This document shows positions 5,525 to 62,182 of a stretch of DNA of 64,000 nucleotides, piece after piece. Below the pieces are notes generated by a model. The model was not told the DNA's origin. It did no database searches and was given only the letters and a program-made list of their open reading frames with translations. Source of the DNA: Candidatus Multivoradales bacterium (lineage in GTDB: Bacteria > Acidobacteriota > Thermoanaerobaculia > Multivoradales > J023); assembly GCA_965248925.1 (NCBI GenBank), contig CBDFLE010000004.1:192001-256000 (forward strand), given 5' to 3'. A program made the translations under genes and the position numbers. Position 1 is the first letter of the stretch. Each line of letters starts with the position of its first letter.

Positions 5525-6439
5525 CTACTTGGGCGCATGGAAGCCAGAGAGCACTCCTTGCCAGGCGGTCATGAATCGTAGGTGCCCTCGTGAGGGCTGG
5601 CGGCCGGTCCAGATCTCTGCCGGTGTGTAGCCGTCGAGGTTCTGGTGCGGGCGCAGTTCGTTGTACCAAAACCGGAAGAAATCCAGCTGCCTCTGGGCCT
5701 TGCGGCCCGCTGGCAGCGGCTCGCGCCGCCGCCGCAAGCGCTCTTTGAAGGTGCCAAAGAATCGCTCGATGCGTCCGTTCTGCCACGGCGAGGCCACCTG
5801 AGTTCGCTGGTGGCGAATGCCGAGAAGAAAAAGTGAGAGCCGGAAGATCCAAGAGGTAAAAGTGGGTTCATTATCGGTGCGCAGACACCTTGGCTTGCCG
5901 CAAAGCTCAATCGCGTCGAGCAGCTGGCGTACCAGCTCGACTGAGGCTTTGGTCTTGACAACCTGAAGGCACAAGCAGAGCCGAGTGCCGTGATCCAGCA
6001 GGCCGAGAATCATCTCTTTCTTGCCGGAGGTGTTGTCGGCGTAGGTGAGATCGGCGGCCCAGATCAGCCGCTTGCCGATGATTCCAGGTTTTCTCCTGCG
6101 GATCTTCCGGCGCCAAGCGAGAATCTCCAGCTGGTGCTCGTTGAAGATCTTTGCAACGTAGCTCTTGCCCACCGTCATTCGGCGATGGCGGTAGTTGCGA
6201 TTGAAGGCTGCCGCGATCGCCCTACAGCCATCGTCGGGCTGCAACGCCTTGAGCCGGATCACCGCTTGGCGCACCCACTTGGGCTTGCGCCGGCAGAAGC
6301 CGCGATAAGTCGTTGGGTCGGGTGGACACTTGGCTCGGCGGCGGTGCTTCGCCCTGGGTTGCAGGGCGAGCGAAGTGAGCGCAAGAATCAGAAGCAACAC
6401 GAACGCCCAGAGCAGGGCGCCGGCAAGATCAGAAGTCAT
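5525..6439 (-). CDS. rve/DDE integrase-core transposase (IS3/IS481-like fold) with N-terminal hydrophobic helix, unit 1
   Basis: WAADLT, LRTDNE, SPWQNGRIERFFGTFKE (D,D,E); WYNELRPHQNLDGYTP integrase C-terminal motif; HTH-like region KWVRQAVIRLKAL...VGKSYVAKI. Confidence 0.88.
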   Translation of the reverse strand: MTSDLAGALLWAFVLLLILALTSLALQPRAKHRRRAKCPPDPTTYRGFCRRKPKWVRQAVIRLKALQPDDGCRAIAAAFNRNYRHRRMTVGKSYVAKIFNEHQLEILAWRRKIRRRKPGIIGKRLIWAADLTYADNTSGKKEMILGLLDHGTRLCLCLQVVKTKASVELVRQLLDAIELCGKPRCLRTDNEPTFTSWIFRLSLFLLGIRHQRTQVASPWQNGRIERFFGTFKERLRRRREPLPAGRKAQRQLDFFRFWYNELRPHQNLDGYTPAEIWTGRQPSRGHLRFMTAWQGVLSGFHAPK

Positions 6440-24000: not shown

Positions 24001-26976
24001 ACCCAGCGCAGCTACGATGGGCTCAACCGGATGACCCGCGAGGTGCGGCCGGAAGGAATCTCGGTCGACTACAGTTGGGACGACGCTTCGCGCCTCACCA
24101 CCTACACCGACGCCCGCGGCCAGGCCACCCGCTGGGAGTACGACGGCGTGGGTCGGCGCACCAAAGTCGTCTATCCCGATCAGCAGCAGGAGCGTTGGGT
24201 CTATGACCCCACCGGCAACGTTACCGAGCGCCACGATCCTCGCGGCCTGGTAGTGCATCAAAGCTGGGACGAGGCTGGGCGGTTGCAATCACGTACTGTC
24301 ACCCCGCCGCTGGGCGGCACCCTCGAAGGGCCGGGGGTCGAGGCTTTCACCTTCGACGGCCTCGACCGCCTGACCCGAGCCCAGTCGGGAAGCGTAGTTA
24401 CCGAGCGAGTCTACAACTCCCTCTCCCACCTGGCCTCAGAGACGAATGCCGGACGCACCACCAGCTGGCAGCGCAACGCCCTTGGCGAGCCCACTCGCAC
24501 TAGCTACCCCTCGGGCCGCCAGGTCGAGCGCGCCTTCGACAATCTCGGCCGAGCCAGCACGGTTGGCGAACCCGGCGCGCCAGCCTCGATTGCCAGCTAC
24601 GGCTATCGCGGCCCGGCGATTGCCTACAAGGCTCTCGGCAATGGTCTCCTGGGCAACATAAGCTTCGATGGCTTGCGCCGGATGGTGGACAGCAACTTCA
24701 GCCTGGCGGGGGAGTCCGCCACCTTCCAGGAGAGTCTGGCCTGGAGTCCCCGCAGCCTCAAGACCGGCCAATCGCGGGGCGATCTGGGCGGCGCCGGCCG
24801 GGTCTTCGCCTACGATGGCGCGAAGCGCCTGATCGAATCCGCTCGCGTGCCCCCGGCTTTGGCTCAGCGCCCTGGCAACACGCCCCCCGACGTGGCCCTG
24901 CTGGCCACCTTGCCCGAACGCACGAGCTACCAGCACGACAACGCCATGAACCTGATTCGCAGCACCACCACCCAGCGTGGCATCGAGCAGATCACCGACT
25001 TGCCGCCCGACAATCGCAATCGTCCCAGCGCCTTCGGCGGCGTTGCCCTCGAATGGGACGCTGCCGGCAACATGAAGCGCAAAGGCGATATGCAGATGTA
25101 CTATGATTTACACAACCGCCTGACGCGGGTCGCCCGCGCCGGTGTCGAAGTCGCCAAGTATCACTACGACGCCTTCAACCGCCGGGTGAAGGTCGAAACG
25201 CCGACCCACACTGACGACAGCGTATGGGACGGCTGGCAGTCGTTAGAGACCTATCGCGATGGCGCCTTGGCTTCGCGGCGAGTTTACGGCAACGGTATCG
25301 ACGAGATCCTGCAACAAGAGGCCGACCTCGACGGAGATGGCACGGTGGAGCAGACTTACTATCCGATCACCGACAGCACCGGCAACGTGGCGATGCTGAC
25401 CGGAGCCGACGGCAAGCCCATCGAGCGCTACTTCTACAGCCCCTTCGGCGGGCGCAAAGTGCTGGTCGACTCCACGCCCCCCGAGGTCGAACAGGTGCGG
25501 GTCCAAGACAGTGCACTGTGGATCGAGCTTTCTGAAGAAGTCTCCACCGAAGAACTACAAGCCAGCCTGGCCGACGGTCGCATCCAGCTGACCCAGACCA
25601 GCGACGGAATGCCCCTACCGCTGAACTTCGATCTACCCGTTCAGGAAGGCCGTCAAGCTCGGCGAAGACTCGTACTGACGCCGGCCACGCTGCCGGCCGA
25701 CGGTGACAGCCTGCGGCTAGAAGTCGCCGCCAGCGCGCTGAGCGATACCTTCCGCAACCTGGCCAATGCCGGCGTCGACCTCACCTGGACCTGGTCCGCG
25801 GCCGACGAAGTGCTGCAAGATACCGCCGCGCCGCGGGTCGCCGAAATCCTGCTGCGATCACGCGTCGTCGAGATCCAGTTCAGCGAAGAAGCCGATTTCG
25901 CCGCCGCGTCTGGCGCGATCCTCTTAGACGGTCAGCCCACTAGCTGGACCCTGGCTGAAGACCGATACACCCTGATCTCTACTACGACGCTGGCAGCAGG
26001 AACGCACACACTCGACATCAGCACCACCGCTCTCGACCTCGCCGGCAGCGGCCTGGCCGCTGCCTTCAGTCAGGCGCTCGACGTGCCCGCCAGCGGCGAC
26101 CAGCTGGCCTACCAGGCCGCCGACCCACGACTCAGCAGCACCAGTGCCGCCGGCAACGCTCATGGCTTCCATGGCCGGCCGGTGGATGAGGAAACCGGGC
26201 TGCTGTACTTCAGGAATCGGTATCTTGATCCGGAGATGGGACGGTTTGTTAGTAGCGACCCGATGGGTTATGTGGATGGGCCTAGTGGGTATCAGTTTGC
26301 GGGGAATAACCCTGTCAATGATAGTGATTCTCTTGGCCTGAGGCGGGAAGTGAGAGAGCCGGTTACGAGAAAGGAAAGGCGGATCGCGCGAGCTTACAAC
26401 GCTGAGTATGAGAAAATGAAGTCGGACCCGAGATTTTCCGACGCTCTCAAAGAGCTTAAAGAAAATGAAGATTATACTTTGGAGGTCGTCTTTGATGATG
26501 AGTACGATGGATATGGGCAGTTGGCAGTAGTGGGGGGGTACAAGTTTGACGATGATGGGAACCTTATAGGTGCAACGCTAACAGTCGGGCCAGGTTTTAG
26601 AGGCTCTATTAATATTGGAAATGACGAAATGTACCCGTATGGGAGTACTCTCTCGGGAGAGAAGAACAGGCGAGTTTATACAATCTTGCATGAGGAGCTC
26701 GGACATGGTTTCCTGCCTATAACAGACAGGAAATATCTCAGTATACTTCAGGAGAAATCTGCTTACAACGAACGCCTCAACGAGCTGGAAGAAAGTGTCA
26801 GCGTGCCCAGGTCGAGTGCCCGAGAGTGGGTTGAAGAATATCAGCGGCTTTTCGCTGAGAGTGAATTCAGTACGCCTGAGTTCAAGAAGCGCAGGATCGA
26901 AATTAAGAAATATATTGAAAACAGTGCCGATCAACGTGCCCAGGAACTCATTGAAGGTGGTGGAAGGGATGAGTAG
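12049..26976 (+). CDS. Giant secreted Ig-repeat/LVIVD/RHS polymorphic toxin, unit 1 (4975 aa; barrel type B; HEELGH metallopeptidase-like tip)
   Basis: Signal peptide ending AAQA; repeated Ig-like D-x-x-P-P...SG units; Big_5-like FSEP/DxAGN domains; LVIVD-like repeat; pre-RHS motif SGEMTRQAIDL...GPLGPGWDHGY; YD repeats; core ETGLLYFRNRYLDPEMGRFVSSDPMG. Confidence 0.93.
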   Translation: MSKQLSLRSLLVLQASLGALLLSVSAAQAAPVFVSVTPADGTLSSAATVTLTIEVQAATSLQVDGQAVTTVDPSGTVWTAGPYSLSEGERVLVLIAEDASGVQAQQLHRVVRDSLPPVLSLSQPAAGAIVASSPLIVAGTAVDAHLAAVRVGGQVAALSGASFSHSLVLVEGEQTFTVEASDSLGQSGQQSVTVTLDSQPPTVALLEGAQPLAADALFNRSVVLSFSVTDATATTVEALLDGASFTSGTTVSAAGSHVLSVTATDAAGQPTSVSRSFEIDLTAPTFLSFTPSDGTLLADSQVTLSGVVEGAAALSVEGQAASLVGQSWTAGALQLIEGEREISILATDLAGNSASFTLHLERDATAPQLIGLVPSVDSVLATSPVAISGTASDAHLLEVRVGGELASLTGSQFSHPAVVLVEGENLLPIVATDQVGHQATAELRLVLDTQAPTLSVLVAGVPLQGGAVFAGPVTPEISASDATEVVTSATLDGATYLPGTVIAGDGLHQLSVSASDAAGHQATVLVSFSLDLAAPVFADLAPVAGSVDSAAQVTLTGRAPGAVSVSVDGQAATLAGDGFSAGPFNLSEGERVFLLAATDSGGNVTQLTHRLTRDSTAPQLTLGQPAAGSLLGSTTVDVSGTASDPRLDQVTVNGVLAEISGGAFLARQVALIEGDNVLTVVAADTVGNEVQTTRSVTVDTTPPTVVITDPASGTITPEAGLTLSGSAADPHLDRVEVAGVGASLAGGQWSLAVDLQEGSNTFTVEAFDPLGHSTSASVTVTRDSSAPEIHIESPAEGLYSPAANLTVSGTVVAEPDLTVTVGGVAATVAGSSWSAAAVPLVEGENRLIARVTDALGNQGTHTRVVWRDNQAPEFLSSIPAAGALELPAGSSFRLRFSEPLAAPSGGAYSLSTLAGQALASSAEIDGDDLVITPQAALPSATELRLVLGAGLVDRAGNALAAAHTLAFTVVDGGSPAAPQLDAYASYLCAPAITLAGSAEPGAWIEVDGGASVGAGQVADDGRFAISVVLLPEGPNHLTVIAVDAAGNPSPATSADIVHDCTAPEVLGASREAAGFRIALSETVDPLTLSGSVRVYDSGVEIAGTVSAAVNAGAGELIWTATAALPSVALLVEVEGALADLAGNPLAFPYRQLFDIALGGSFFSGTAIDDASGRPLGGVRAVVTASDGVALAEPWPEQTSGEDGRLVIALPAGTHDVTFARPGYTPVFRVVTTVDGQGTDVFDPRLTPAAAAVSIDASGGLVEGSSEVGTAPRLTLPPAGLASAAAVRLTAVGGQGLAALLPYGWAPRGAVWVDLSAVNLDSSATLDLPVTSPDGTVLEAVTLDLATLQWRSLGVVTVSGGEVTMTVDGEGAWAAVEADSGALAPPPAVAGQMLGSSAAPPSGGVTSASLSFDPEVVLPTQRSWVQVLYGLAAEVPSGVPLTLSIEERLELLDGSVRRISPYSADLVLYRDSLGDPTSRFRLRPSAAARSLPVRLGAEQVSVRSYGDETVRGNVLGPDGGVVSSAEGDQVVLPTGALEEPTAVTLSRRTVADLPLAPPAGGTVDGVLELDLAGRRLLLPAELSWSLTPAPAAGTPGLLLGVVEVEGEPRYRAIAELEATGTGWRTQAIDAADLAWPGVLEGGLYVFLRLDAAPRFVRGMVLDPGGAPVVGAVVESTTVPWLQISAAEGGYVLPILLDAATLSARRAVTGNAVAVALPAGVAAERVDLDLPLQIVAPWVEQITPSAGTSGVLLGFNPVVRFSEPVDRASLDGAIELRQGGVAVAVALDHQGALVTLLPQATLVPGSEYEVWVGAAVRDLQGYGLSGSVSVLFSTEVVATPAGVDRGRIFLVEPDAQGLARVEGLAGAAPAGTLVFVENLTSFSTTESVQSAGDGSFLLTIGASLDDQLLLHVLIDGGNEVVILLTPFLGADLRTGLAGTGAGEFTTADGITVRYAAGTFAGPSRVQVTPIAMGTLAAAEDFSELVTFRLEIAGAQPLKPLEVTMAAPAGTAPAGTAAGSLWLLRRQLEIADLPWMVHAELALDGGELSTIHTVGEAQSANSGEVGGTKSGTFDVPAPLRVLSPAEAAARLPRSGFLSALPPADPAALVEVEPPLAGLGPAKATVVPVLADYLVGVSRPGIYQAARAEVELGWIAFPFRGAQDLVVRTAELPEVVLALDAVNRSFLPLGAGALPVELSPTPLNADPAAPGTKAPPAGEPKADSVEIQVLDFAGVELYRLVVDAPTQQLVLLTPSQLPNAGPPMPVGGGPLRFHAFDVAEGTAEIAAGISAELEGNSLTVRGEAGSAGAGVAVRLIDLESSNVLSATASPGGSFSVVASPSQLGDQLVLAISAKLTPGQPLRLDFSEALQEEAPGIRVEHDGMALPITKEPLGSWAQLRIHGGWQAGKTYNLRLDSTMADAAGLPWDTDLTLPFEVAESSAGTSFALDAAHDIARLGSLLFVAAGADGLAVLDASDPRQLKNWLAAETYVDLVSEPGLPVRGVATDSHGRVVAVGGGVARRGVLLILDPQELPQGAATVPAAAILGRTLLTEPQLAGSGAPPLLIGRPLEVEIFNRDQSTTWTLGEAVPPGLTLAPPSPPSGTAAVSLTVSGMATAERPVTLRNLTTGERDSARVGSAGGGGAGSFSLSLSVQRGDRLELLRNELSLAYVAGYDAGVVTVDLNAVEAADEEVDDPWDAFDLLRYNTHYFVPTEVLCSTFENDQRFDVIEARVLPAASEGEPWSVLALVENYGLLSLGASVAAPLDKLAYRDALCGEVDDNRKLGGLDVLPGYRFDRNGDGVLDDDEPERDYALLTNTVGGGGRGWLLIVDVTERDELRRVGRIELPGPATRVTADPVGRRALVSGLGGGVYIVDLDRWPELGGGGGTPQIWSSDRVVERLSFGEDVRAPTLVAPELGLAFAGGVARGVTPISTGLPRLSLVTSGQQGLRRVARLAPFGAPTAPESAEEGAEEIPGVIRVQAQLPGGLADAEGKIRVDLAGIGPAGLPVRGLGEGLMDEPMAELKDDKALVLQRQSDNPLSEGYNVFLSDPVVLLADVRASAHFERSEAEKKVCRRCDLVDEGVYSAADLPPNELHVELLSGHQVRASYSASFATSLSGLYNADLLAGYAVIADSVPWDLSPSPHQEPVLNAATSAMAAPGTLLHSGEMTRQAIDLSLQGRGLDLALVRTYRSQTISNGPLGPGWDHGYRLRLRLLPNGDIDFFDGTGRRETFTLEDDRELKPPVGRFVQLKKYAEGYTLIGSGYQRWRFDRWGRLVSMIDSVRTSEGTGNEITFHYDSHSRLARIHDDLDRNTFLHYDDEGRLEKIVDFSDRDFLYHYDAQGRLTSFETPDVDLGSGSSQRLSTTYAYHPLGTGLAGQLTQRDDLKSETDAKSQTWLTLRYQDSDGNGRPDALKEQDWGAGTVHLAFDFDGQQTTLTDRRGKVWTYHHNAAGQATSLVDPKSANGSWQYDGEGLLTRATRPLGGATEIEYPADTSGDRRGRGDALRMVKIADSRGPNGSPSELVTTWEYHSPTHQPSRKTEPGGAVTVWVRTDNGLPQQIVRAAGAAEQSITGLTYNARGQLLEATNPNGHVTRHSYFASGGQKGYLQQTEVDPGGLSLVTTYERNDRGQLEAITDPRGVRHETELNNLDWPLAQVAAASTSGFLAPLGYRTTWSYDANGDISEVASPFGDGSTTTIEARTYGVLGELLSVEREVAPGGRRIVETSTYDPNLNLLTHIDGAGQRVEREYDDRGQLSLVRRGLGTGALATPIVEHQSYDLDGHLSSQRDGRGMTWEAERDGHGRVLRSRSPLGHYREQRYNPAGDLAALLAYDAGGQLLVESAFAYDLLHRRTETTAWRWTPDPQQPDPSRTAEKTHHRWDAASNLLEVEDPLGRLTRTSYDAAERPERVELPEGNVRRTTYDSGGLPITEHADEVDPAGGSHTITYQSTFDALGRRLSRQDGIFANRTLWTVDARGQVTLEVDPTGSFTQRSYDGLNRMTREVRPEGISVDYSWDDASRLTTYTDARGQATRWEYDGVGRRTKVVYPDQQQERWVYDPTGNVTERHDPRGLVVHQSWDEAGRLQSRTVTPPLGGTLEGPGVEAFTFDGLDRLTRAQSGSVVTERVYNSLSHLASETNAGRTTSWQRNALGEPTRTSYPSGRQVERAFDNLGRASTVGEPGAPASIASYGYRGPAIAYKALGNGLLGNISFDGLRRMVDSNFSLAGESATFQESLAWSPRSLKTGQSRGDLGGAGRVFAYDGAKRLIESARVPPALAQRPGNTPPDVALLATLPERTSYQHDNAMNLIRSTTTQRGIEQITDLPPDNRNRPSAFGGVALEWDAAGNMKRKGDMQMYYDLHNRLTRVARAGVEVAKYHYDAFNRRVKVETPTHTDDSVWDGWQSLETYRDGALASRRVYGNGIDEILQQEADLDGDGTVEQTYYPITDSTGNVAMLTGADGKPIERYFYSPFGGRKVLVDSTPPEVEQVRVQDSALWIELSEEVSTEELQASLADGRIQLTQTSDGMPLPLNFDLPVQEGRQARRRLVLTPATLPADGDSLRLEVAASALSDTFRNLANAGVDLTWTWSAADEVLQDTAAPRVAEILLRSRVVEIQFSEEADFAAASGAILLDGQPTSWTLAEDRYTLISTTTLAAGTHTLDISTTALDLAGSGLAAAFSQALDVPASGDQLAYQAADPRLSSTSAAGNAHGFHGRPVDEETGLLYFRNRYLDPEMGRFVSSDPMGYVDGPSGYQFAGNNPVNDSDSLGLRREVREPVTRKERRIARAYNAEYEKMKSDPRFSDALKELKENEDYTLEVVFDDEYDGYGQLAVVGGYKFDDDGNLIGATLTVGPGFRGSINIGNDEMYPYGSTLSGEKNRRVYTILHEELGHGFLPITDRKYLSILQEKSAYNERLNELEESVSVPRSSAREWVEEYQRLFAESEFSTPEFKKRRIEIKKYIENSADQRAQELIEGGGRDE

Positions 26977-27433
26977 ATTAAGGAATTGTATTCATGTTGT
27001 TGAGTCATTGACTCTGGGTATTGCTATATTCCTTATTGTCGAGGCTTGTGCAGTTACCGGAGAGTGTTTGATCTCTGAAGGCGAGATTTCGTCGTATCAG
27101 AGGTTAATTGTTCGACCAGAGAACTCTGGTGATTTCTACCGGGTAGTCGGGATTTACCGTGGTGGGTTTGAGACTTCTGTAGTTACCCTGTTCCTTGATG
27201 AGGATCTGAGTTTGTTGAATTTGGACTATAGCGGGTCTATGGCGTATTGCGTTAGAGTCAGAGACTCTTGTGAATCGGTGTTTTACGAAGGACTCTCTGG
27301 CAACGTGGAGGCGTCATTCGACTACCCATTCTATGGCAAGGTCGATTTGCTGGTTCGCTTTGAAGGGGAGTCTAGCGATTTAGACTGTCGGTCTGGCAGA
27401 TTGACCGTGTTGCGAATTCACGAAATGCATTGA
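26969..27433 (+). CDS. Putative immunity protein (154 aa, N-terminal hydrophobic segment, likely exported)
   Basis: ATG overlaps the toxin end; low GC; LTLGIAIFLIVEAC segment. Confidence 0.7.
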   Translation: MSRLRNCIHVVESLTLGIAIFLIVEACAVTGECLISEGEISSYQRLIVRPENSGDFYRVVGIYRGGFETSVVTLFLDEDLSLLNLDYSGSMAYCVRVRDSCESVFYEGLSGNVEASFDYPFYGKVDLLVRFEGESSDLDCRSGRLTVLRIHEMH

Positions 27434-27442
27434 TTTCCTGTC

Positions 27443-27560
27443 TGTCCCGTCCGCGTGTCCCGTCCGCGGCGTCCACGATCAAAATCGTAGCCAAACGGCC
27501 TGTCCCGTCCGCGGCGTCCGCGAACGAAATAGTGGCTAAAAGGCCACTTTATTAGCCGTC
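27443..27560 (+). repeat. Unit-boundary direct repeat, three staggered copies (27443, 27456, 27501)
   Basis: TGTCCCGTCCGCG; TGTCCCGTCCGCGGCGTCCACGATCAAAATCGTAGCCAAACGGCC; TGTCCCGTCCGCGGCGTCCGCGAACGAAATAGTGGCTAAAAGGCCACTTT. Confidence 0.88.
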
Positions 27561-27727
27561 TAGCCTCGCCGGTAAGCCGGCACCGTGCCGATCATCCTCA
27601 GCTCATTCTGAAAATCTTCCCAGCCGACCGCCATCTTCGCTCACCGGCCGGAAATCGTGCCCCATGGTCGCACCTCACCGTGGACAGCGCGTCGCAGCAG
27701 CCCATCAACTCGCCAGCCCGAACCGCT

Positions 27728-28642
27728 CTACTTGGGCGCATAGAAGCCAGAGAGCACTCCTTGCCAGGCGGTCATGAATCGTAGGTGCCCTCGTGAGGGC
27801 TGGCGGCCGGTCCATATCTCTGCCGGTGTGCAGCCGTCGAGGTTCTGATGCGGGCGCAGTTCGTTATACCAAAACCGGAAGACATCCAGCTGCCTCTGGG
27901 CCTTGCGGCCCGCTGGCAGCGACTCGCACCGCCGCCGCAGGCGCTCTTTGAAAGTGCCGAAGAAGCGCTCGATTCGGCCGTTCTGCCAGGGCGAGGCCAG
28001 TTGCGTTCGCTGATGGCGGATGCCCAGCAGGGCCAGCGAGAGCCGGAAGATCCACGAGGTGAAGACAGGCTCGTTGTCAGTGCGCAAGCACTTTGGCTTG
28101 CCGCAGAACTCGATCGCGTCGAGCAGCTGGCGCACCAGTTCGACCGAGGCTTTGGTCTTGACAACTTGAAGGCACAAGCAGAGCCGAGTGCCGTGATCCA
28201 GCAGGCCGAGAATCATCTCTTTCTTGCTGGCGGTGTTGTCAGCGTAGGTGAGATCGGCGGCCCAGATCAGCCGCTTGCCGCCGATCCCAGGTTTTCTCCT
28301 GCGGATCTTCCGGCGCCAAGCGAGAATCTCCAGCTGGTGCTCGTTGAAGATCTTTGCAACGTAGCTCTTGCCCACCGTCATTCGGCGATGGCGGTAGTTG
28401 CGATTGAAGGCTGCCGCGATCGCCCTACAGCCATCGTCAGGCTGCAACGCCTTGAGCCGGATCACCGCTTGGGGCACCCACTTGGGCTTGCGCCGGCAGA
28501 AGCCGCGATAAGTCGTTGGGTCGGGTGGACACTTGGCTCGGCGGCGGTGCTTCGCCCTGGGTTGCAGGGCGAGCGAAGTGAGCGCAAGAATCAGAAGTAA
28601 CATGAAGGCACAGAGCAGGGCGCCGGCAAGATCAGAAGTCAT
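27728..28642 (-). CDS. rve/DDE integrase with N-terminal hydrophobic helix, unit 2 (intact)
   Basis: Close paralog of 5525-6439 with DDE motifs intact. Confidence 0.88.
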   Translation of the reverse strand: MTSDLAGALLCAFMLLLILALTSLALQPRAKHRRRAKCPPDPTTYRGFCRRKPKWVPQAVIRLKALQPDDGCRAIAAAFNRNYRHRRMTVGKSYVAKIFNEHQLEILAWRRKIRRRKPGIGGKRLIWAADLTYADNTASKKEMILGLLDHGTRLCLCLQVVKTKASVELVRQLLDAIEFCGKPKCLRTDNEPVFTSWIFRLSLALLGIRHQRTQLASPWQNGRIERFFGTFKERLRRRCESLPAGRKAQRQLDVFRFWYNELRPHQNLDGCTPAEIWTGRQPSRGHLRFMTAWQGVLSGFYAPK

Positions 28643-28692: not shown

Positions 28693-29160
28693 TCACGTAT
28701 CACCTCCCGAATGCCAGAAGCCCGGCTTGTGCAACTCCAGCACGAAGTCCACCTCGGCGGCCCTCGTCTCGTAGTCACGCCGCTCCTTCGCCGCCGCGAT
28801 CCTGGCGGCGATCTCGCTGGCCAGGTGCTCTCCCTTGCCGGGTCGCGTCGGCAAGGCTTCTCTGGCCACATCGCGGAGGACTTGCTCCACCAGCGCCCGG
28901 TCCTTCTTCTTCGGGTCGCTAGCGTGGTTGAGAAACCACAGGATCAGCGCCGCGGGCTCGAGGAAGCGGTGGTTGACCGCGGCCAGGAAGGCCGCGGTCA
29001 GCTCTTCGATCGGTGCGCTGGCAGAAAGCTTAATCTCAGCCAGGCTGTCGATGCTGGAATGATTGAGTCGCTGGTTGGCGCCGGTGATCTGAGCGGCGAT
29101 CTGGCGTACTGTCTGGTGGATCTGTTCGGTGGTCATAGGCTTTCTGGACAGAGTGGCCAT
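28693..29160 (-). CDS. Hypothetical helical protein (155 aa), conserved in the unit
   Basis: AGGAGG RBS; near-identical copy at 48750-49217; directly upstream of the integrase. Confidence 0.75.
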   Translation of the reverse strand: MATLSRKPMTTEQIHQTVRQIAAQITGANQRLNHSSIDSLAEIKLSASAPIEELTAAFLAAVNHRFLEPAALILWFLNHASDPKKKDRALVEQVLRDVAREALPTRPGKGEHLASEIAARIAAAKERRDYETRAAEVDFVLELHKPGFWHSGGDT

Positions 29161-29185
29161 TCTGGTGTTCCTCCTAGGTGATCTA

Positions 29186-29491
29186 TTATTGGCGGATATT
29201 GACGCCGAAGCCGATGGCCATGGTTTCGATGGCTTGGGCCAGGGCGATGTGTTGCTCGGTGAGTTCGGCCTCCGGCGTGGCGGGCAACTTGAGGGTCAGC
29301 AAAGTGCCTCGTAGATGAACTTCGATCGTTGCCCTCTGACACACCACGAAAGCCAGGAGCTGGCGCAGGAACCGGTAGGCGGCGGGGAAGTCGACGAACT
29401 CTAGCCGCTGGGCAATAACTTGTGGATTGTCTTCGCTCTGGCGCCAATGTACTAGCCGCCCTAGCCCGAGCTGAATTCGTTCGGGTTTCAT
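29186..29491 (-). CDS. PCD-fold-like protein 2 (101 aa)
   Basis: MKPERIQLGLGRLVHWRQ...IAQRLEFVDFPAAYRFL...ELTEQHIALAQAIE resembles the PCD pattern, no HHP; AAGGAG RBS. Confidence 0.6.
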   Translation of the reverse strand: MKPERIQLGLGRLVHWRQSEDNPQVIAQRLEFVDFPAAYRFLRQLLAFVVCQRATIEVHLRGTLLTLKLPATPEAELTEQHIALAQAIETMAIGFGVNIRQ

Positions 29492-29509
29492 TCACAATAC
29501 TCCTTGAGG

Positions 29510-29872
29510 TCACGGTTCAAGAAAAAGCACCCTCCGGGCAGCAGGGGCTGATTCTGCCCGGAGGGGAGTCGCCGTGGTTGGGGAGGGACCACCACGGCCA
29601 TCACAGGGACTCAGGGAGCGAGCGAGGTCGAAATCTTCCGGCCGCAGACGGGCCGGCGCCGCCGGCCCGATCCGTACCGAGACCCAGCGGCCGACCATCG
29701 CGGCTCTGGGTTCTAGGTTGGTGAGTTCACCGCGATAGAACACCCACTCGACGAAGATCAGAGAATCGCGCCAAGAATCAAAGAGATATTTGCGGGTGAT
29801 CTTTTGTTGCCCTTTGATTTGTCGCCAAACGGGTAGGGCACTCAGGGCCTGTTGGATCTCTTCGTCGGTCAT
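29510..29872 (-). CDS. PCD-fold protein 1, unit 2
   Basis: Near-identical to 9665-10027. Confidence 0.65.
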   Translation of the reverse strand: MTDEEIQQALSALPVWRQIKGQQKITRKYLFDSWRDSLIFVEWVFYRGELTNLEPRAAMVGRWVSVRIGPAAPARLRPEDFDLARSLSPCDGRGGPSPTTATPLRAESAPAARRVLFLEP

Positions 29873-30155: not shown

Positions 30156-31499
30156 ATGTTTGGCGAATCAGCGAGCGAGCAGCACCAGCGATGCCTAGAA
30201 ACGCTGAAGGCCCATGTGCGACGGCATCCGATGTCGGTAAGGGAGATCGAGCGGCGCCTGGGATATTCTCCGTCCTACTTGCACCGGATCCTTCGTGGCA
30301 AAGTAGGGTTGTCGTTTGAGGGCTTGTTGCAGCTGCTCGAAGTGGTGGATATGAGCTTCGAGGAGCTGGCGATCAAGACGGCGCGAGTGGATGCCGAGGG
30401 ATTGTTGGAGAGAGCCTTACCTCCGGGCACGGTAGATCCGCCAGAAATTGAGCAGTTGTCGTTAGTAGCAACTCAGCTCATCGAAGGTGATCTTGTTAGA
30501 ACAGCACCCGATTCAGCATGTCAGGCGCTATTTCAGGCGGTGAGTGAAGCTGATGAGCAGCGCTACTCGGACCCCTGGTTAGCCGCTGAAAAGGCGTGGT
30601 CAATCGCAGCTTGTGTAGCGCCTAGAATAGCCGGCAGATCGGCGCTGGAACTCTGCTGTGGAGCGATCAGTGTTTACGGGTCTTGCTGCCGAATCGGCGG
30701 AGCTGCTCAGCACGCGATTCGCGCGTTGATTTCTGTTAGCCAGCTCGTTCGATCGTGCGGGCTGAGCCATCGGGCGGATTGGCTTCTTCGGGCCGCCTCG
30801 GCATTGAATAGTCACGGTGAGCATGAAGCTGGGCTGGAACTCGGCATTGTGGCTGGAGAGATCTTCGAGAGGTTGGGGGACAGTGCGGGTGTAGGCTCGG
30901 CTCTCATCAGCAAGGCTATCTCGATGGTCTTCTTGAAGGACAATGAGCGAGCGGCGACGACCTTCCACTCTGCGCTTCTTCATATTCCGTCGAAGGGCTA
31001 TTCTCGTCGGCTGATGGCAGCTCATCATGGTCTGGCGAAGTTGCTGGTCGAGCAAGGGGATTTGGAGGAGGCTAGATCACATATTGTGTCTGCATCGTCA
31101 GAGGTCCAAGCGTCGGACACCTACAGTCGAGGCATGCTGGCCCGGACCATGGGCAACTGGCATTGGAAGAAAGGACATAGGGAAGAGGCAATAGAGGATT
31201 TGCGCTCAGCGGAGAAGTGCCTTGTGGAGATCAATCCCTTCGATACGGCTTTTGTCGTACTCGACCAGATCGGGTTCTGCCTGGAAATTGGCCGACTCCA
31301 GGAAGCGATCAAGGCTGCCGAGGAAACGTCCGACCTGATCGAGCTGTTCAAGTCCAATCCGATGGCAGGTGGCATTCTTTTGAGGCTTCGAGACGCTGCC
31401 CAGAGGGGAAGGCTGAGCATGCGTCTGATTGAGATCGCCCGGAGAAGGATGGCCGGCAGGCGGCCTTTCGGAATCCGCCCGCCGGCAACATTTAATTAG
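30156..31499 (+). CDS. XRE-type HTH + TPR regulator, unit 2
   Basis: First ~180 aa almost identical to 10310-11647; TPR region diverged. Confidence 0.8.
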   Translation: MFGESASEQHQRCLETLKAHVRRHPMSVREIERRLGYSPSYLHRILRGKVGLSFEGLLQLLEVVDMSFEELAIKTARVDAEGLLERALPPGTVDPPEIEQLSLVATQLIEGDLVRTAPDSACQALFQAVSEADEQRYSDPWLAAEKAWSIAACVAPRIAGRSALELCCGAISVYGSCCRIGGAAQHAIRALISVSQLVRSCGLSHRADWLLRAASALNSHGEHEAGLELGIVAGEIFERLGDSAGVGSALISKAISMVFLKDNERAATTFHSALLHIPSKGYSRRLMAAHHGLAKLLVEQGDLEEARSHIVSASSEVQASDTYSRGMLARTMGNWHWKKGHREEAIEDLRSAEKCLVEINPFDTAFVVLDQIGFCLEIGRLQEAIKAAEETSDLIELFKSNPMAGGILLRLRDAAQRGRLSMRLIEIARRRMAGRRPFGIRPPATFN

Positions 31500-31826
31500 C
31501 CGCTGGGATCGATGGATCCACCGTATTGCGGCCCTACTGGCTTGGTTTCTAACATCTGATTTCTCCCTTGAAGTGCGAGCAAGCTGGGCCACTTAATTGC
31601 GCCCGCTGCCCGCTACAGGCCCAAGCTACAGCGCTTCCCAAACAGATCCTTTGGTTGAATGCTCATCAGAGGGCGATGGAGGCCGTGAACACGGCTTGAG
31701 TGCGAGTAGATTCAAAGCGCTCGTAGACTGTTTAGGGCTAGTGAGTAGCTCCGTGCGAGGCCCGCCGAAGGGTGCTTCTCTTGCGTTTTGGGCAGCAGAA
31801 CCTCTGTCATTCAGTGATCTGAGGGG

Positions 31827-31896
31827 AAACGGTTCATTTCGAGCTTGCACAAATGAACCGTTTGGTCTCAGCGGTGGACTTGCCTACAGTCTTCCG
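31827..31896 (+). promoter_or_regulatory. 13-bp inverted repeat plus TACAGT upstream of the unit 2 RHS
   Basis: AAACGGTTCATTT-cgagcttgcac-AAATGAACCGTTT (31827-31863); arms conserved, spacer differs from unit 1. Confidence 0.6.
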
Positions 31897-34800
31897 ATGC
31901 CAAAACAGCTATCTCTGCGCTCTCTCCTCGTCCTCCAAGCCTCTCTCGGTGCCCTCCTACTGTCGGCGAGCGCCGCTCAAGCGGCGCCTGCCTTTATCTC
32001 GGTAACCCCCGCCGACGGCACTCTGTCGAGCGCCGCGACGGTGACTCTGACTATCGAAGTGCAGGCCGCGACCAGCTTGCAGGTGGATGGCCAAGCGGTC
32101 ACCACGGTTGATCCCTCGGGGACGGTGTGGACCGCTGGTCCTTACTCGTTGAGCGAGGGGGAGCGGGTGTTGGTGTTGATTGCCGAGGACGCTTCCGGGG
32201 TGCAGGCTCAGCAGCTGCACCGGGTGGTGCGGGACTCGCTGGCGCCGGTGCTGAGCCTGAGCCAGCCGGCGGCGGCGGCGATTGTCGCCAGCTCGCCGCT
32301 CACCGTGGCCGGCACGGCGGTGGATGCGCATCTGGCGGCGGTGCGGGTGGGGGGTCAGGTGGCGGCTCTCAGTGGTGCGAGTTTTTCGCACTCGCTGGTC
32401 TTGGTGGAGGGCGAGCAGACGTTCACCGTGGAGGCGAGCGACAGCCTGGGGCAGAGCGGGCAGCAGAGTGTGACGGTGACTCTCGATAGCCAGCCGCCGA
32501 CGGTGGCGCTGTTGGAGGGAGCTCAGCCGTTGGCGGCGGATGCGCTGTTCAATCGCTCGGTGGTGCTGAGCTTCAGCGTCACGGATGCGACGGCTACGAC
32601 GGTCGAAGCGCTGCTCGACGGCGCTTCTTTTGTCTCTGGCACGACGGTGAGCGGGGCGGGTTCGCATGTGTTCTCAGTGACCGCCACCGACGCGGCTGGC
32701 CAGCCGACTAGCGTCAGCCGGAGCTTTGAGATCGACCTGACGGCGCCGACTTTTCTCAGCTTCACGCCGAGCGATGGCACGCTCTTGGCAGGCTCGCAGG
32801 TGACCCTCAGCGGGGTGGTAGAGGGTGCGGCCGCGCTGAGTGTCGAGGGACAGGCGGCGAGCCTGGTGGGGCAGTCGTGGACGGCCGGGGCATTGCAGCT
32901 GATCGAGGGGGAGCGGGAGATTTCTATCGTCGCTACTGATCTGGCGGGCAATAGCGCCTCGTTCACCTTGCATTTGGAGCGCGACGCGACGGCGCCGCAG
33001 CTGATCGGCCTGGTGCCCAGTGTGGACTCGGTTTTGGCGACCTCGCCGGTGGCGATCAGCGGCACCGCGAGTGACGCCCACTTGCTGGAGGTGCGGGTGG
33101 GGGGCGAGCTGGCGAGCCTGACGGGCTCGCAGTTCAGCCAGCCGGCGGTGGCGCTGGTGGAGGGTGAGAATCTCCTGCCGATCGTGGCCACGGATCAGGT
33201 GGGCCATCAGGCGACGGCCGAGCTGCGGCTGGTGCTCGATACCCAAGCACCGACGCTGTCGCTGCTGGTGGCGGGGGTGCCGCTGCAGGGTGGCGCGGTG
33301 TTCGCCGGCCCGGTGACGCCTGAGATCTCGGCCAGCGACGCCACCGAGGTGGTGACGTCGGCGACTCTCGACGGCGCCACCTACTTGCCGGGCACGGTGA
33401 TTGATGGCGATGGCTTGCATCAGCTGTCAGTGAGCGCCAGCGACGCGGCGGGCCATCAGGCGACGGTGCTGGTGAGCTTCAGCCTCGACCTGGCGGCGCC
33501 GGTGTTCGCGGATCTGGCGCCGGTGGCTGGCAGTGTGGACAGCGCTGCTCAGGTGACGCTGACCGGCCGCGCGCCGGGGGCGGTGTCGGTGTCGGTGGAC
33601 GGGCAAGCGGCGACGCTGGCGGGGGATGGCTTTAGCGCCGGTCCCTTCAATTTGAGCGAAGGGGAGCGGGTGTTCTTGCTCGCCGCCACCGATAGCGGCG
33701 GCAACGTCACCCAGCTGACCCACCGCCTGACCCGCGACTCGACGGCGCCGCAGCTCACCCTCGGCCAGCCGGCGGCCGGATCCCTGCTGGGGAGTACCAC
33801 GGTCGATGTCAGCGGCACGGCGAGTGATCCGCGTCTTGATCAGGTGACGGTCAATGGGGTGCTGGCCGAAATCAGTGGCGGCGCTTTCCTGGCCCGTCAG
33901 GTGGCGCTTATTGAAGGTGACAATGTGCTCACGGTGGTGGCGGCGGACACGGTGGGCAACGAGGTCCAAACGACCCGCTCGGTGACCGTTGATACGACGC
34001 CGCCGACGGTCGTCATCACCGACCCGGCCAGCGGCACGATCACCCCCGAGGCGGGGCTGACCCTGTCGGGCAGCGCCGCGGATCCTCATCTCGACCGGGT
34101 CGAGGTGGCGGGGGTGGGGGCGAGCCTGGTGGGTGAGCAATGGTCGTTGGCGGTGGATCTGCAAGAGGGCAGTAACACTTTCACCGTCGAAGCCTTCGAC
34201 CCGCTCGGCCACAGCACCAGCGCCAGCGTCACGGTGACTCGCGACAGCTCGGCGCCTGAGATCCACATCGAGAGCCCGGCCGAGGGGCTTTACAGCCCAG
34301 CAGCGAATCTCACGGTCAGCGGCACGGTGGTCGCGGAGCCCGATTTGACAGTGACGGTGGGCGGCGTGGCGGCGACGATTGCGGGCAGCAGCTGGAGCGC
34401 CGCCGCGGTGCCGCTAGTAGAGGGTGAGAACCGGCTGATCGCAAGGGTGACCGACGCCCTGGGCAACCAAGGCACTCACACGCGGGTGGTGTGGCGCGAC
34501 AACCAAGCGCCGGAGTTTCTATCGTCGATCCCCGCCGCGGGGGCTCTCGAGCTGCCGGCCGGCAGCAGCTTCCGGCTGCGCTTCAGCGAGCCGTTGGCGG
34601 CGCCCAGCGGGGGCGCCTACAGCCTCAGCACCTTGGCCGGGCAAGCCCTGGCGAGCAGCGCCGAGATCGATGGCGACGACTTGGTGATCACCCCGCAGGC
34701 AGCACTGCCGTCGGCCACCGAGCTGCGCCTGGTGCTAGGGGCGGGGCTGGTCGATCGGGCGGGCAATGCTCTAGCGGCGGCTCATACTCTGGCTTTCACC

Positions 34801-47785: not shown

Positions 47786-48699
47786 CTACTTGGGCGCATA
47801 GAAGCCAGAGAGCACTCCTTGCCAGGCGGTCATGAATCGTAGGTGCCCCCGTGAGGGCTTGCGGCCGGTCCAGATCTCGGCTGGCGTGTAGCCATCGAGG
47901 CTTTGGTGCGGGCGCAGTTCGTTGTACCAAAACCGGAAGACATCCAGCTGCCGCTGGGCCTTGCGGCCCGCTGGCAGCGGCTCGCGCCGCCGCCGCAGGC
48001 GCTCTTTGAAGGTACCGAAGAACCGTTCGACGCGGCCGTTCTGCCAGGGCGAGGCCACCTGAGTTCGCTGGTGGCGAATACCCAGTATGGCCAGCGAAAG
48101 CCGGAAGATCCAAGATGTAAAGACTGGCTCGTTGTCAGTGCGCAAGCACTTTGGCTTGCCGCATAGCTCGATCGCGTTGAGCAGCTGGCGAACCAGCTCA
48201 ATGGAGGCTTTGGTCTTCACCGTCTGAAGGCACAAGCAGAGCCGAGTGCCGTGATCCAGCAGGCCGAGAATCATCTCTTTCTTGCTGGCGGTGTTGTCAG
48301 CGTAGGTGAGATCGGCGGCCCAGATCAGCCGCTTGCCGATGATTCCAGGTTTTCTCCTGCGATCTTCCGGCGCCAAGCGAGAATCTCCAGCTGGTGCTCG
48401 TTGAAGATCTTCGCAACGTAGCTCTTGCCCACCGTCATTCGGCGATGGCGGTAGTTGCGATTGAAGGCTGCCGCGATGGCGCGGCAGCCATCGTCGGGCT
48501 GCAACGCCTTGAGCCGAATCACCGCTTGGCGCACCCACTTGGGCTTGGGCCGGCAGAAGCCGCGATAGGTCGTTGGGCCGCGTGGACACCCAGCTCGGCG
48601 GCGGTGCTTCGCCCTGGGTTGCTGGGCGAGCGAAATGAGCGCAAGAATCAGAACCAACACGAAGGCACAGAGCAGGATGCCGGCAAGGTCGGGAGTCAT
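47786..48699 (-). pseudogene. rve/DDE integrase, unit 3, frameshifted
   Basis: CCTGCGATCTT versus CCTGCGGATCTT in the paralogs (1-nt loss at ~48361); could be a sequencing indel. Confidence 0.8.
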
Positions 48700-52647: not shown

Positions 52648-52783
52648 CCCTCCGGAGAAATCAGCATCCCGTAGCTCATTTGGTTTTCACGAGATTTAGT
52701 TTTCATCAGTGACCTCCTTCGCAACGAGCCAAGAGTCGCTGAATTGCTCTTCTTGGTCCGAAGTCCCGCCCAAACTATATCGA

Positions 52784-60872: not shown

Positions 60873-61127
60873 GTGTATTCTCAGATTGCAGTAGTTTTTT
60901 TGGTGGGTCTAGTCCTGGGCGTTTTGCAATCGCTGTTGGTTGGTATCCGCATCGGCACCTGGGACGGTGGAACTGGTTGTCTCTGGGGACTCTTGGTTGG
61001 GATTGCGTCAGGACTGTGTGCGATCTGGATTGGTTGGTGGGGCAATGCTGTCGCAGTGTTGATGTCTTTGGTGTGTTTCATCGGTGCCGAAGTGTGGATT
61101 AGGAAGAACGGCGCGCCCCGCATGTAG
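60873..61127 (+). CDS. Putative immunity protein (84 aa, ~3 TM helices)
   Basis: GTG directly after the toxin stop; strongly hydrophobic. Confidence 0.65.
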   Translation: MYSQIAVVFLVGLVLGVLQSLLVGIRIGTWDGGTGCLWGLLVGIASGLCAIWIGWWGNAVAVLMSLVCFIGAEVWIRKNGAPRM

Positions 61128-61141
61128 TGTCTTGCCTGCCG

Positions 61142-61159
61142 TGTCCCGTCCGCCGCGTC
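61142..61159 (+). repeat. Terminal 18-bp copy of the unit-boundary motif
   Basis: TGTCCCGTCCGCCGCGTC, identical to 5222-5239; unrelated sequence follows. Confidence 0.85.
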
Positions 61160-61222
61160 GTCCCTGAATAGGTGCCAGCCGATTCGCAATCCGCCTAGAA
61201 TCAGCAGCTTGCCTTGACCAAA

Positions 61223-62180: not shown

Positions 62181-62182
62181 GG

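Follow-up and report, generated by a model that had tools for sequence, protein, structure and literature searches.

A DDE integrase family with a hydrophobic N-terminus at the borders of Rhs and CdiA toxin cassettes, possibly a membrane-tethered recombinase

The window, by which we mean the whole stretch of 64,000 nucleotides that was analysed, carries three copies of an integrase gene, two of them intact and one frameshifted. The copy discussed here, copy B, lies with its conserved downstream terminus just beyond the C-terminal end of a giant Rhs gene, and the features of the locus are collected in Table 1.

Table 1. Features of the integrase locus and of the related copies in the window
Feature	Position	Strand	Remarks
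Integrase copy A, intact	5525..6439	-	terminus motifs at 5222 and 5298
Giant Rhs-type gene, 4975 aa	12049..26976	+	convergent with integrase; Pfam RHS_repeat, DUF6531, Ig-like domains
Copy-specific Rhs C-terminal tip and small downstream ORF	26305..27433	+	putative toxin tip and immunity gene, by position; small ORF 26795-27433
Two partial terminus copies	27443..27467	-	tandem, outside the full terminus
Conserved right terminus	27501..27522	-	+ strand TGTCCCGTCCGCGGCGTCCGCG; gene sense ...GGACGGGACA-3'
Inner inverted site	27682..27686	-	gene sense TGTCC, about 42 nt past stop
Integrase CDS, copy B	27728..28642	-	304 aa, from the ORF list; rve-type DDE integrase
RNase-H-fold DDE catalytic core, codons 126-262	27857..28267	-	triad and structural/sequence matches
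Catalytic residues D130, D189, E225	28253-28255, 28076-28078, 27968-27970	-	
Helical DNA-binding-like domain, codons 55-115	28298..28480	-	four AF2 helices; opens with KPxWV motif
Basic, Pro-rich, disordered linker, codons 27-54	28481..28564	-	QPRAKHRRRAKCPP...RRKPK
N-terminal hydrophobic helix, codons 2-26	28565..28639	-	core GALLCAFMLLLILALTSLAL, residues 7-26
155-aa ORF, no family assigned	28693..29160	-	directly upstream of integrase, co-oriented
Two small pterin-4a-carbinolamine-dehydratase-like ORFs	29186-29491, 29603-29872	-	co-oriented
HTH(Xre)-TPR regulator gene	30156..31499	+	precedes next Rhs gene (31597-46941)
Integrase copy C, broken	47786..48699	-	1-nt deletion; terminus-like motif at 47559
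Solo right-terminus motif without integrase	61142..61153	-	directly past last Rhs gene and small hydrophobic ORF

The copy B protein begins MTSDLAGALLCAFMLLLILALTSLALQPRAKHRRRAK and scores above the Pfam cut-offs for both rve_3 (59.6 bits, cut-off 26.5) and rve (34.7 bits, cut-off 32.6). The AF2 model has a mean pLDDT of 89.4, and the best matches, by Foldseek for structures and by PDB sequence profiles, are retroviral integrases and TnsB. In an alignment of 37 diverse sequences the three catalytic residues are invariant, as are P53 and W55 of the KPxWV motif, with K52 and V56 nearly so, and the triad is intact in all nine of the intact copies in the genome. We infer that the gene encodes an intact DDE recombinase of the rve type, with activity predicted, in an uncharacterised clade related to the IS481 and IS3 transposases.

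There are nine intact 915-nt copies in the genome and at least four more that are degraded. The intact copies are all on one strand and are confined to Rhs arrays, and they are 89-100% identical, with a median nucleotide identity of 93.2%. All 915 nt are open in the nine at a pS of 0.15, with pN/pS 0.21 overall, and the gene is under purifying selection. The IS3-like element of the same genome is present in 23 copies on both strands with a median nucleotide identity of 98.9%, and the IS21-like element in 21 copies at 99.6%. The integrase gene is unlike these active insertion sequences and is not a typical IS.

With regard to the toxin loci of this genome, the integrase genes are all 3.5-9.5 kb past RHS-repeat matches, and each copy is just beyond a Rhs toxin-immunity pair, the roles of the pair being putative and assigned by position. 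About 15 Rhs genes of the genome have no integrase. Next to copy B the segment with the Rhs tip and small ORF matches no paralogous cassette, whereas both of its flanks match at 79-96%. The 155-aa ORF is upstream of six of the nine integrase copies, is truncated in three, and is absent from the Nitrincola loci described below. With the Pfam model Pterin_4a the first of the two pterin dehydratase-like ORFs falls short of the cut-off at 22.4 bits, and the second exceeds it at 40.7 bits.

A sequence-only reading of the window had noted that all three copies start with about 20 hydrophobic residues and then a basic patch, and the sequences bear this out (copy A ...GALLWAFVLLLILALTSLAL, copy C ...GILLCAFVLVLILALISLAQ), with the addition that the frame of copy C is broken by its 1-nt deletion after about residue 113. 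The same hydrophobic-then-basic layout is present in all nine intact genomic copies. In the AF2 model of copy B the helix has a block pLDDT of 86-96 and the linker one of 51-57 with no secondary structure, the folded domains coming after it. Membrane insertion was predicted from hydropathy scales (Kyte-Doolittle, Hessa and Eisenberg). The copy B helix is apolar throughout about 20 residues before a patch of +5 or greater, and has a Kyte-Doolittle (KD) value of 2.72 over 19 residues, a hydrophobic moment of 0.06 and a Hessa-scale sum of about -4.3 kcal/mol; being uncharged, with about 19 or more hydrophobic residues, it is of transmembrane grade on these scales. Across the nine copies the helix region has pN/pS 0.48. 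The KD value alone yields false positives in a GC-rich genome, as the Ala/Val-rich HTH of the unrelated IS3-like transposase of the same genome scores 2.08; its Hessa sum is +3.2. Two other identities for the N-terminus were considered and ruled out. By the usual rules on charge and lipobox it is not a signal peptide or lipoprotein, as the charges come after the hydrophobic core and a lipobox is absent, and it is not a remnant of the IS3-type HTH with the pattern 'LC..LGVSRS.YY', as BLASTP against the genome's IS3-like protein aligns the catalytic core only.

The family was represented by 194 full-length homologues, about 45-55% identical and from many phyla. KD over 19 residues is at least 1.6 in the N-terminus of 123 of them, as compared with 4 for the rest of the protein, and at least 1.0 in the N-terminus of 171. 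The Hessa-type sum is zero or below in the N-terminus of 74 and in the rest of the protein of none. The hydrophobicity is retained without sequence conservation, over many phyla and GC contents, and this N-terminal feature is common across the family beyond chance, so that the earlier description of the helix as conserved is upheld. All but 23 of the 194 have an acid-poor, hydrophobic or aromatic N-terminus and then a net charge of about +4; 23 have a short Trp/Arg-rich amphipathic N-terminus (Nitrospira-type) with no classical span. The N-terminus is below KD 1.6 in 71, and in a third to half of the family it is too short, or too interrupted by Arg or Trp, for a classical membrane span. For the family as a whole "membrane association" is thus a safer term than "transmembrane helix". 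The mean net charge rises from +1.2 ahead of the helix to +4.3 over the 15 residues that follow it, and is greater after than before in 88% of the 194. This asymmetry fits an N-out/C-in anchor with the catalytic domain in the cytoplasm, and makes a membrane tether plausible; to that extent the earlier proposal of a membrane-tethered integrase is partly supported.

The right terminus has the pattern ...GGACA-N2-3-GGACGGGACA and lies about 220-240 nt past the stop codon, with conservation ending exactly at ...ACA. Of 71 loci from many phyla, 50 have a match to the terminus 12-mer at 200-260 nt past the stop, with up to two mismatches allowed. In 37 of 51 loci TGTCC is found no more than 80 nt past the stop, where shuffled sequences gave 2.2 on average. 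Tandem partial ends similar to those beside copy B are found in other genomes too, and in the arrays of this genome the termini have a single orientation throughout. We considered the stretch of about 190 nt from the inner to the terminal site as an independent mini-element (MITE) and ruled this out, as the solo fragments (107-175 nt) are terminal and have no inner site.

On the left side, a search with inverted 12-mers gave no credible left inverted repeat (IRL), and when the 22-nt terminus of each locus was compared with the 700 nt upstream the best inverted match was at shuffle level. None of the 8-mers shared upstream is conserved, and the upstream '+' terminus matches, inspected one by one, are chance matches. 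Pairs of copies in four genomes, compared to locate their left boundaries, also gave no credible IRL or target duplication. As neither a left end nor a target duplication was found the mobile unit has no defined bounds, and its transposition stays a proposal. There is an apparent, weak likeness in direct orientation between ACAGCGGGC near the Nitrincola left boundary and ACAGCGGAC in the Nitrincola right end.

At an E-value of 1e-30 or below the family comprises 167 clusters at 50% identity. Its members are annotated at source only as "integrase core domain-containing protein" or "transposase InsO family", and the ESM Atlas matches are to generic rve clusters only. The cultured hosts among the loci include Nitrincola, Stenotrophomonas nitritireducens, Rheinheimera and Limnohabitans. 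In Nitrincola there are four integrase copies in the space of 15 kb, placed between a CdiA-type gene and the orphan fragments of that gene (Fil_haemagg_2, DUF637 and Tox-REase-7), Ahniella has loci with Rhs-AHH and Rhs-NucA, and the Cellvibrio locus has a hemagglutinin and EndoU. In all three, and in the genome studied here, co-oriented integrase copies alternate with cargo. The copies of any one genome are always diverged (85-93%), and this argues against recent movement.

Context was tallied for 56 loci with at least 2.5 kb of flank, several of them from the same or sister genomes and thus not all independent. The largest downstream ORF is convergent in 44 and of at least 1000 aa in 19, and it matches RHS_repeat in 14 and Fil_haemagg_2 in 6, with a toxin-type match absent at 33 or more of the 56. 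The sequence-only reading had proposed that tethering might couple recombination to DNA uptake or cell contact. The findings lend no support to the first of these. The second has indirect support only, in that the family is embedded in contact-dependent toxin loci (Rhs and CdiA); the association is genomic, and contact-responsive recombination is not in evidence.

The reading we prefer, to which we give a probability of about 0.55, is of a DDE recombinase that is tethered to the membrane, restricted to action in cis and associated with cassette arrays of polymorphic toxins, the membrane insertion, cis action and mobilisation being its predicted parts. The first 26 or so residues would be a helix of the signal-anchor type, its hydrophobic core and basic linker inserting N-out/C-in, and a flexible tether of about 28 residues would hold the HTH and catalytic domains against the cytoplasmic side of the inner membrane. 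Together, the gene and the terminus some 230 nt past its stop would form a fixed 3' border for toxin cassettes repeated head to tail, the cassettes being a Rhs tip and immunity gene here, and elsewhere also CdiA tips and orphans. Co-translational membrane insertion could keep the enzyme near its own gene and so lead to cis action on its own ...GGACGGGACA-3' end. The direct repeats could then allow movement of the toxin cassette between them as a circle or translocatable unit, or its homologous exchange, and we liken this to IS26 units and to the IS2-like megacircle with a Burkholderia CDI locus.

Could the gene instead be an old but ordinary IS of the IS481/IS3 type? The N-terminal peptide would then be a soluble feature and not an anchor, for which roles as an oligomerisation or autoinhibitory helix, or as an arm packing on the DNA or the core, can be proposed, and the association with toxins would reflect tolerated or selected insertion sites. 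The catalytic core has the standard rve fold and the terminus ends in CA, as in other DDE elements; many family matches are on metagenome contigs of 1-2 kb, as is often so for repeats, the family is patchy among relatives (12 of 31 genomes), and about a third of it has Trp/Arg-rich amphipathic N-termini below transmembrane grade. However the copy B helix (hydrophobic moment 0.06, Hessa sum -4.3) with its patch of at least +5 is the signature of a signal anchor and not of a soluble helix. In addition no IRL was found, there is one match in 72,556 plasmid records, the curated cut-offs for IS481 and IS3 are widely missed, and the copies are clustered, co-oriented and diverged as compared with the two active IS families of the genome. 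We regard an ordinary IS as unlikely.

Somewhat more doubtful is a domesticated recombinase, itself immobile, with the gene and terminus serving as a downstream homology arm and perhaps as a generator of site-specific nicks or breaks, while Rhs or CdiA tips and immunity genes are swapped by homologous recombination. The variable segment between the conserved Rhs core and the conserved terminus and integrase fits this well, as do paralogues that are under purifying selection and never near-identical, and ends of one kind only that are always in direct orientation. Domestication sits less easily with the occurrence of the family next to unrelated giant genes (RTX and tandem-95 repeat proteins) and at loci with no recognisable toxin, with the patchy distribution among close relatives and the many degraded copies, which are as for mobile DNA, and with the tandem partial termini, which resemble repeated end-directed events.

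A more speculative form of the membrane reading, which we think improbable, is that the anchor keeps the enzyme latent and that envelope events license its action on the one-sided ...GGACGGGACA ends. Such events might be envelope stress, delivery of a contact-dependent toxin by a rival, or cleavage of the anchor by an intramembrane protease. If this were so, excision, amplification or reshuffling of toxin and immunity cassettes would coincide exactly with contact warfare, in a one-ended cassette system bounded by direct repeats that has a DDE enzyme and not a tyrosine recombinase.

The ATG of copy B is the first start codon, six codons past an in-frame stop. AAGGA directly adjoins it, a spacer of 0 where the genome mode is 6-7 nt, and is a poor ribosome-binding site. 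The doubt raised earlier about the true start is correct on this point but is a minor one, as in three of the nine copies CAGGGC replaces AAGGA and the ORF is kept. The only other in-frame ATG, GTG or TTG before K52-P53-x-W55 is codon 14, which is inside the helix, and translation could start downstream of the helix only at the cost of the invariant P53 and W55; the downstream start that had been considered thus finds no support. That the helix is not made, either through such a start or because the copies are decaying passengers duplicated with Rhs cassettes, its hydrophobicity being a by-product of composition, is very improbable: spacer 0 is rare (seen at 17 of the 528 genes that have an SD-like motif), one of the three window copies is frameshifted and at least four further copies in the genome are broken, but 53% of the long ORFs of the genome have no SD-like motif, there is no start codon from codon 14 up to the invariant KPxW, the nine copies have stayed open at the pS and pN/pS given above, hydrophobicity is retained in homologues that are 45-55% identical and cover many phyla and GC contents, and no nucleotide motif is conserved across the N-terminal region.

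What is new is the locus context and the terminus: the family is widespread and undescribed, and it marks the borders of cassettes in Rhs and CdiA systems. In the main text of the open-access papers searched we found no description of the family or of any membrane-anchored DDE transposase or integrase, and to our knowledge a conserved membrane anchor would be unusual in a DDE transposase. The gain and stacking of tips and immunity genes in Rhs and CdiA systems have so far been explained only generally, by "recombination" or "intervening transposases", and a defined enzyme family with a recognisable terminus makes the question of cassette acquisition directly testable. For annotation, the terminus motif is also of practical use as a marker of toxin-cassette arrays. 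For the membrane-tethered recombinase that we prefer, the anchor, if real, would be a physical mechanism for cis-restriction or signal-dependent release.

With regard to known systems, the best NCBIfam match is the IS481 model at 107.8 bits, which does not reach the cut-off of 224, and the IS3 model at 92.7 bits does not reach its cut-off of 160. IS481 transposases are alike in having a single ORF of about 300 aa with a helical DNA-binding region and then a rve/rve_3 core with D,D,E. They differ in that the N-terminus is a soluble HTH where here there is a hydrophobic anchor-like helix, and here no inverted repeat pair was found and the copies are neither scattered nor near-identical. The IS3 OrfAB transposases, to which the IS2-like elements discussed below belong, share the rve core, but the integrase is a single ORF with no -1 frameshift between orfA and orfB, and again no IRL was found; the 155-aa ORF ends 50 nt before the integrase ATG with no overlap, and other genomes lack it.

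IS26 has 14-bp terminal inverted repeats and near-identical copies. The arrays resemble IS26/IS6 units in the alternation of co-oriented copies with cargo, and the tandem end remnants are compatible with insertion beside an existing copy. They differ in that the integrase family is nearly absent from plasmids, and the match to Pfam DDE_Tnp_IS240 is below cut-off (23.5 bits, cut-off 27).

For the tether itself there is a parallel in ToxR, TcpP and CadC, inner-membrane proteins with a single-span anchor that nonetheless act on chromosomal DNA. These are transcription factors in which an N-terminal cytoplasmic domain is joined through the one span to a periplasmic sensor, whereas the span predicted for the integrase comes at the very start of the protein and leaves next to nothing outside, and its cargo is a recombinase.

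Among studies of toxin systems, a survey of polymorphic toxins uses the word "transposase" once, in another sense (PMC3482391). Transposase and integrase genes intervene in orphan CDI arrays (Ruhe et al. 2016, PMC4927057) and, like the integrase genes here, are placed between displaced toxin-immunity pairs (orphan cdiA-CT/cdiI) in tandem arrays. The passage concerned mentions them generically and defines there no family, conserved terminus or N-terminal anchor (PMC4927057). A parallel to the arrays is found in Burkholderia thailandensis, where an IS2-like, IS26-TU-like megacircle carries bcpAIOB and where cis action of nascent transposases is discussed (PMC6350997). There too direct-oriented copies flank a contact-dependent toxin locus, although the segment is of 210 kb, as against cassettes of 1.2-20 kb here, and a circle is here a proposal. 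A megacircle of one IS with the intervening DNA is nonetheless a ready model for the head-to-tail units described here (PMC6350997).

Copy B of the integrase falls in the retroviral-integrase DDE superfamily, with Pfam matches above cut-off to rve_3 (59.6 bits) and rve (34.7 bits), and D130, D189 and E225 are invariant across the family alignment. It is one of three copies in the window, of which copy C is a pseudogene because of its 1-nt deletion. Genome-wide (7.98 Mb in 6 contigs) nine intact copies of 915 nt lie on contigs C4 and C5, always on the minus strand; at least four more are degraded. Among the nine paralogues pS is 0.15 and pN/pS 0.21 overall, these being pairwise averages over related copies and not independent events; for codons 1-27 pN/pS is 0.48, which is relaxed, not neutral. 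The gene is intact and under selection, and by its sequence encodes a DDE enzyme of predicted activity with an anchor-like N-terminus. The copies at C4:269824-270735 and C5:61349-62260 are nucleotide-identical, and may result from a recent segmental duplication or from duplicate assembly of the end of C4 and the start of C5; all other pairs differ by 4-11%.

Integrase copies and neighbouring features of the window
Feature	Position	Strand	Remarks
Integrase copy A	5525-6439	-	intact
IS21-family element	6787-9119		istA 6787-8361 (Mu-transposase C-terminal and rve), istB 8121-9119; about 130 nt upstream of copy A, replacing most of the 155-aa ORF present at other copies; about 21 near-identical copies in genome
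Xre-type HTH and TPR paralogues	10310-11647, 30156-31499, 51268-52647	+	one ahead of each Rhs gene
Unit-specific segment	26305-27433		Rhs C-terminal tip and small ORF
Partial extra termini	27443, 27456
Terminus	27501
Inner inverted site	27682-27686
Integrase copy B	27728-28642	-	304 aa, starts MTSDLAGALLCAFMLLLILALTSLALQPRAKHRRRAKCPP
Three small co-oriented ORFs	28693-29872	-	upstream of 6 of the 9 integrase copies: 155-aa protein without family, two pterin-4a-carbinolamine-dehydratase-like proteins (22 and 40.7 bits)
Integrase copy C	47786-48699		1-nt deletion past about residue 113
DDE_Tnp_1 transposase, DUF4372 N-terminus (IS4/IS5-type)	50047-51204	-	between copy C and next regulator gene
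Last Rhs gene, split	52744-58107, 58095-60872
Small, very hydrophobic ORF, then solo terminus	60880-61160		terminus at 61142, without integrase
Xre-like ORF and DnaG-type primase gene	62165-64000		beyond solo terminus; may be edge of island

All nine copies are confined to arrays of giant Rhs genes, and RHS-repeat matches 3.5-9.5 kb before every integrase place it just past the Rhs 3' end; some 15 further Rhs genes, which are shorter, are without an integrase. The repeated unit reads terminus, integrase (-), 155-aa ORF (-), two PCD-like ORFs (-), Xre-TPR regulator (+), Rhs gene of about 5000 aa (+), small ORF (+) and then the terminus of the following unit, and the arrays are head-to-tail. Paralogous units are 79-96% identical throughout except for about 1.1 kb, unique to each unit, at the Rhs tip. 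A segment of this kind is characteristic of polymorphic toxin and immunity cassettes, with the small ORF past the tip as a putative immunity gene. The HTH and TPR protein is likely to be a dedicated regulator of the giant Rhs gene.

In two unrelated delivery systems the integrase has a fixed place, at the 3' border of the toxin and immunity cassettes. The complete Nitrincola genome has four copies, on one strand and within 15 kb, lying between a CdiA-type gene (Fil_haemagg_2, DUF637) and at least three orphan fragments (one with Tox-REase-7 at its end); the three small ORFs are absent from these units. Ahniella has five clustered copies beside Rhs-AHH and Rhs-NucA genes, and in Cellvibrio a hemagglutinin-repeat gene and an EndoU ORF lie between two copies. 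The 56 genome loci having 2.5 kb or more of downstream sequence were tallied without selection. Among them the largest ORF found within 6 kb matched RHS_repeat at 14 loci, Fil_haemagg_2 at 6, RTX repeats at 2 and ShlB at 1; these counts overstate independence because some loci belong to the same or to sister genomes, and at 33 or more the ORF gave no toxin-type match. This ORF is convergent with the integrase in 44 of the 56 and has at least 1000 aa in 19. The family is present in 12 of 31 related genomes, often as fragments on small contigs. Only one relative was found among 72,556 plasmids, on Undibacterium sp. YM2 pUYM01 (record 127727-168629), its annotated CDS of 603 nt lacking the N-terminal part. 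It adjoins a 38.8-kb gene for a 'tandem-95 repeat protein', to which it is convergent, and giant surface proteins in general may therefore share in the association.

The unit has a conserved end of a single type. The terminus, GCGGACGGGACA with at most 2 mismatches, lies about 200-260 nt past the stop codon in 50 of 71 loci; a second GGACA repeat precedes it, and conservation ends exactly past its ACA. An inner inverted site, TGTCCG, about 46 nt past the stop, is present in 37 of 51 loci as against 2.2 expected from shuffles. Upstream of the integrase no inverted partner was found, the best matches being at shuffle level; upstream regions have no 8-mer in common, plus-orientation candidates there are chance matches, and empirical left boundaries in four genomes have no clear motif in common. 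Within an array all termini have the same orientation, and solo and tandem partial termini are common, one solo example following the last Rhs gene of the window. At the right termini of four loci (L022, L023, L085 and L090) the last 8 nt are repeated directly outside the terminus (GGACGGGACA up to the border, ACGGGACAACGGGAC... beyond it), which looks as if there had been repeated end-directed events or slippage at the cleavage point.

The IS3-like and IS21-like rve elements of the same genome are clearly active, with 23 and 21 copies respectively on both strands and median pairwise nucleotide identities of 98.9% and 99.6%. In contrast the integrase has nine copies on one strand with a median of 93.2% (range 89.3-100%), and does not behave as an IS in its own genome. 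Intra-genome copies of the family are 85-93% identical, and near-identical ones were never seen, the C4/C5 pair apart.

With regard to the N-terminus, the sequence-only reading had all three window copies beginning with a hydrophobic segment, and this is confirmed, the copy C peptide being identical to that reported. Its caution about the start was fair, as the SD-like AAGGA touches the ATG and SD-like motifs in this genome are mostly 5-9 nt upstream; 53% of 1133 long ORFs lack one altogether, and in three of the nine copies CAGGGC replaces AAGGA with the ORF still open. The ATG is the first start codon, with an in-frame stop 6 codons upstream, and the sole downstream in-frame ATG, GTG or TTG before residue 56 is codon 14, within the hydrophobic stretch. 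K52, P53 and W55 (the KPxW motif) are invariant or nearly so throughout the family, and translation must therefore begin at codon 1 or, in the worst case, codon 14, with no start between the helix and KPxW.

With a word-indexed search 1390 relatives were obtained, of which the 120 best from other genomes are 43-55% identical and about 300 aa long; an exhaustive profile-free search matched 167, 750 and 5597 50%-identity clusters at E<=1e-30, <=1e-10 and <=1e-3 respectively. KPxW lies in the first 140 residues of 207 of 266 collected proteins, 194 of them with at least 25 residues preceding it. Kyte-Doolittle hydropathy over 19 N-terminal residues is at least 1.6 in 123 of these 194, 1.0-1.6 in 48 and below 1.0 in 23; elsewhere in the protein 1.6 is attained in only 2%. 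The 15 residues that follow the segment carry a net charge of +4.3, as against +1.2 ahead of it. What the family has throughout is thus an acid-poor, hydrophobic N-terminus and, behind it, a basic patch. Neither its amino-acid sequence nor any nucleotide motif is conserved, so constraint acts on the physical character of the peptide. Used by itself, the Kyte-Doolittle scale can be misleading in a genome as GC-rich as this one: at C5:364726 and 22 further places the unrelated IS3-like transposase carries an N-terminal HTH rich in Ala and Val (…AACVALAVPRATFYRRRRQ), which at 2.08 exceeds the TM threshold, so that hydropathy scans over-call membrane helices in such genomes. Hessa-type sums are -4.3 for the window helix and +3.2 for this HTH control, and are at or below 0 in 74 of 194 N-termini and in none of 194 remaining sequences. 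The low-hydropathy class, typical of Nitrospira loci, has short Trp/Arg-rich N-termini with a hydrophobic moment of 0.34-0.51 (0.06 for the window helix) that look like interfacial amphipathic helices and not membrane spans. Judged from sequence, roughly 40-60% of the family, the window member included, is TM-grade. The suggested membrane tether is plausible for the window copy and about half the family; coupling of recombination to DNA uptake is without support.

An AF2 model from a 37-sequence alignment (mean pLDDT 89.4) predicts a single helix (residues 2-26), a disordered basic linker (27-54), a four-helix DNA-binding-like domain (55-115) and an RNase-H core (126-262). Relatives are publicly named solely 'integrase core domain-containing protein' or 'transposase InsO family protein', and the open-access literature searched described neither the family nor its terminus, nor any DDE transposase anchored in a membrane.

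We consider the fixed partnership with polymorphic-toxin cassettes, together with the one-ended architecture, more interesting than the membrane tether. The helix would insert N-out/C-in and tether the enzyme to the membrane, and because insertion would be co-translational the enzyme would remain close to the gene and end it belongs to; PMC6350997 discusses, in its section 8, cis action by nascent transposases. The closest solved structures are retroviral integrases and TnsB, and the integrase scores below the curated cut-offs for the IS481 (107.8 against 224 bits) and IS3 (92.7 against 160 bits) families. Co-oriented units would permit the intervening cassette to move in the manner of an IS26 TU or a 'megacircle', or to be exchanged by homology. 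Published precedents are generic: transposase and integrase genes are noted between the orphan modules of CDI arrays (PMC4927057), and bcpAIOB is carried by an IS2-like, transposase-dependent megacircle whose formation needs BcpA activity (PMC6350997).
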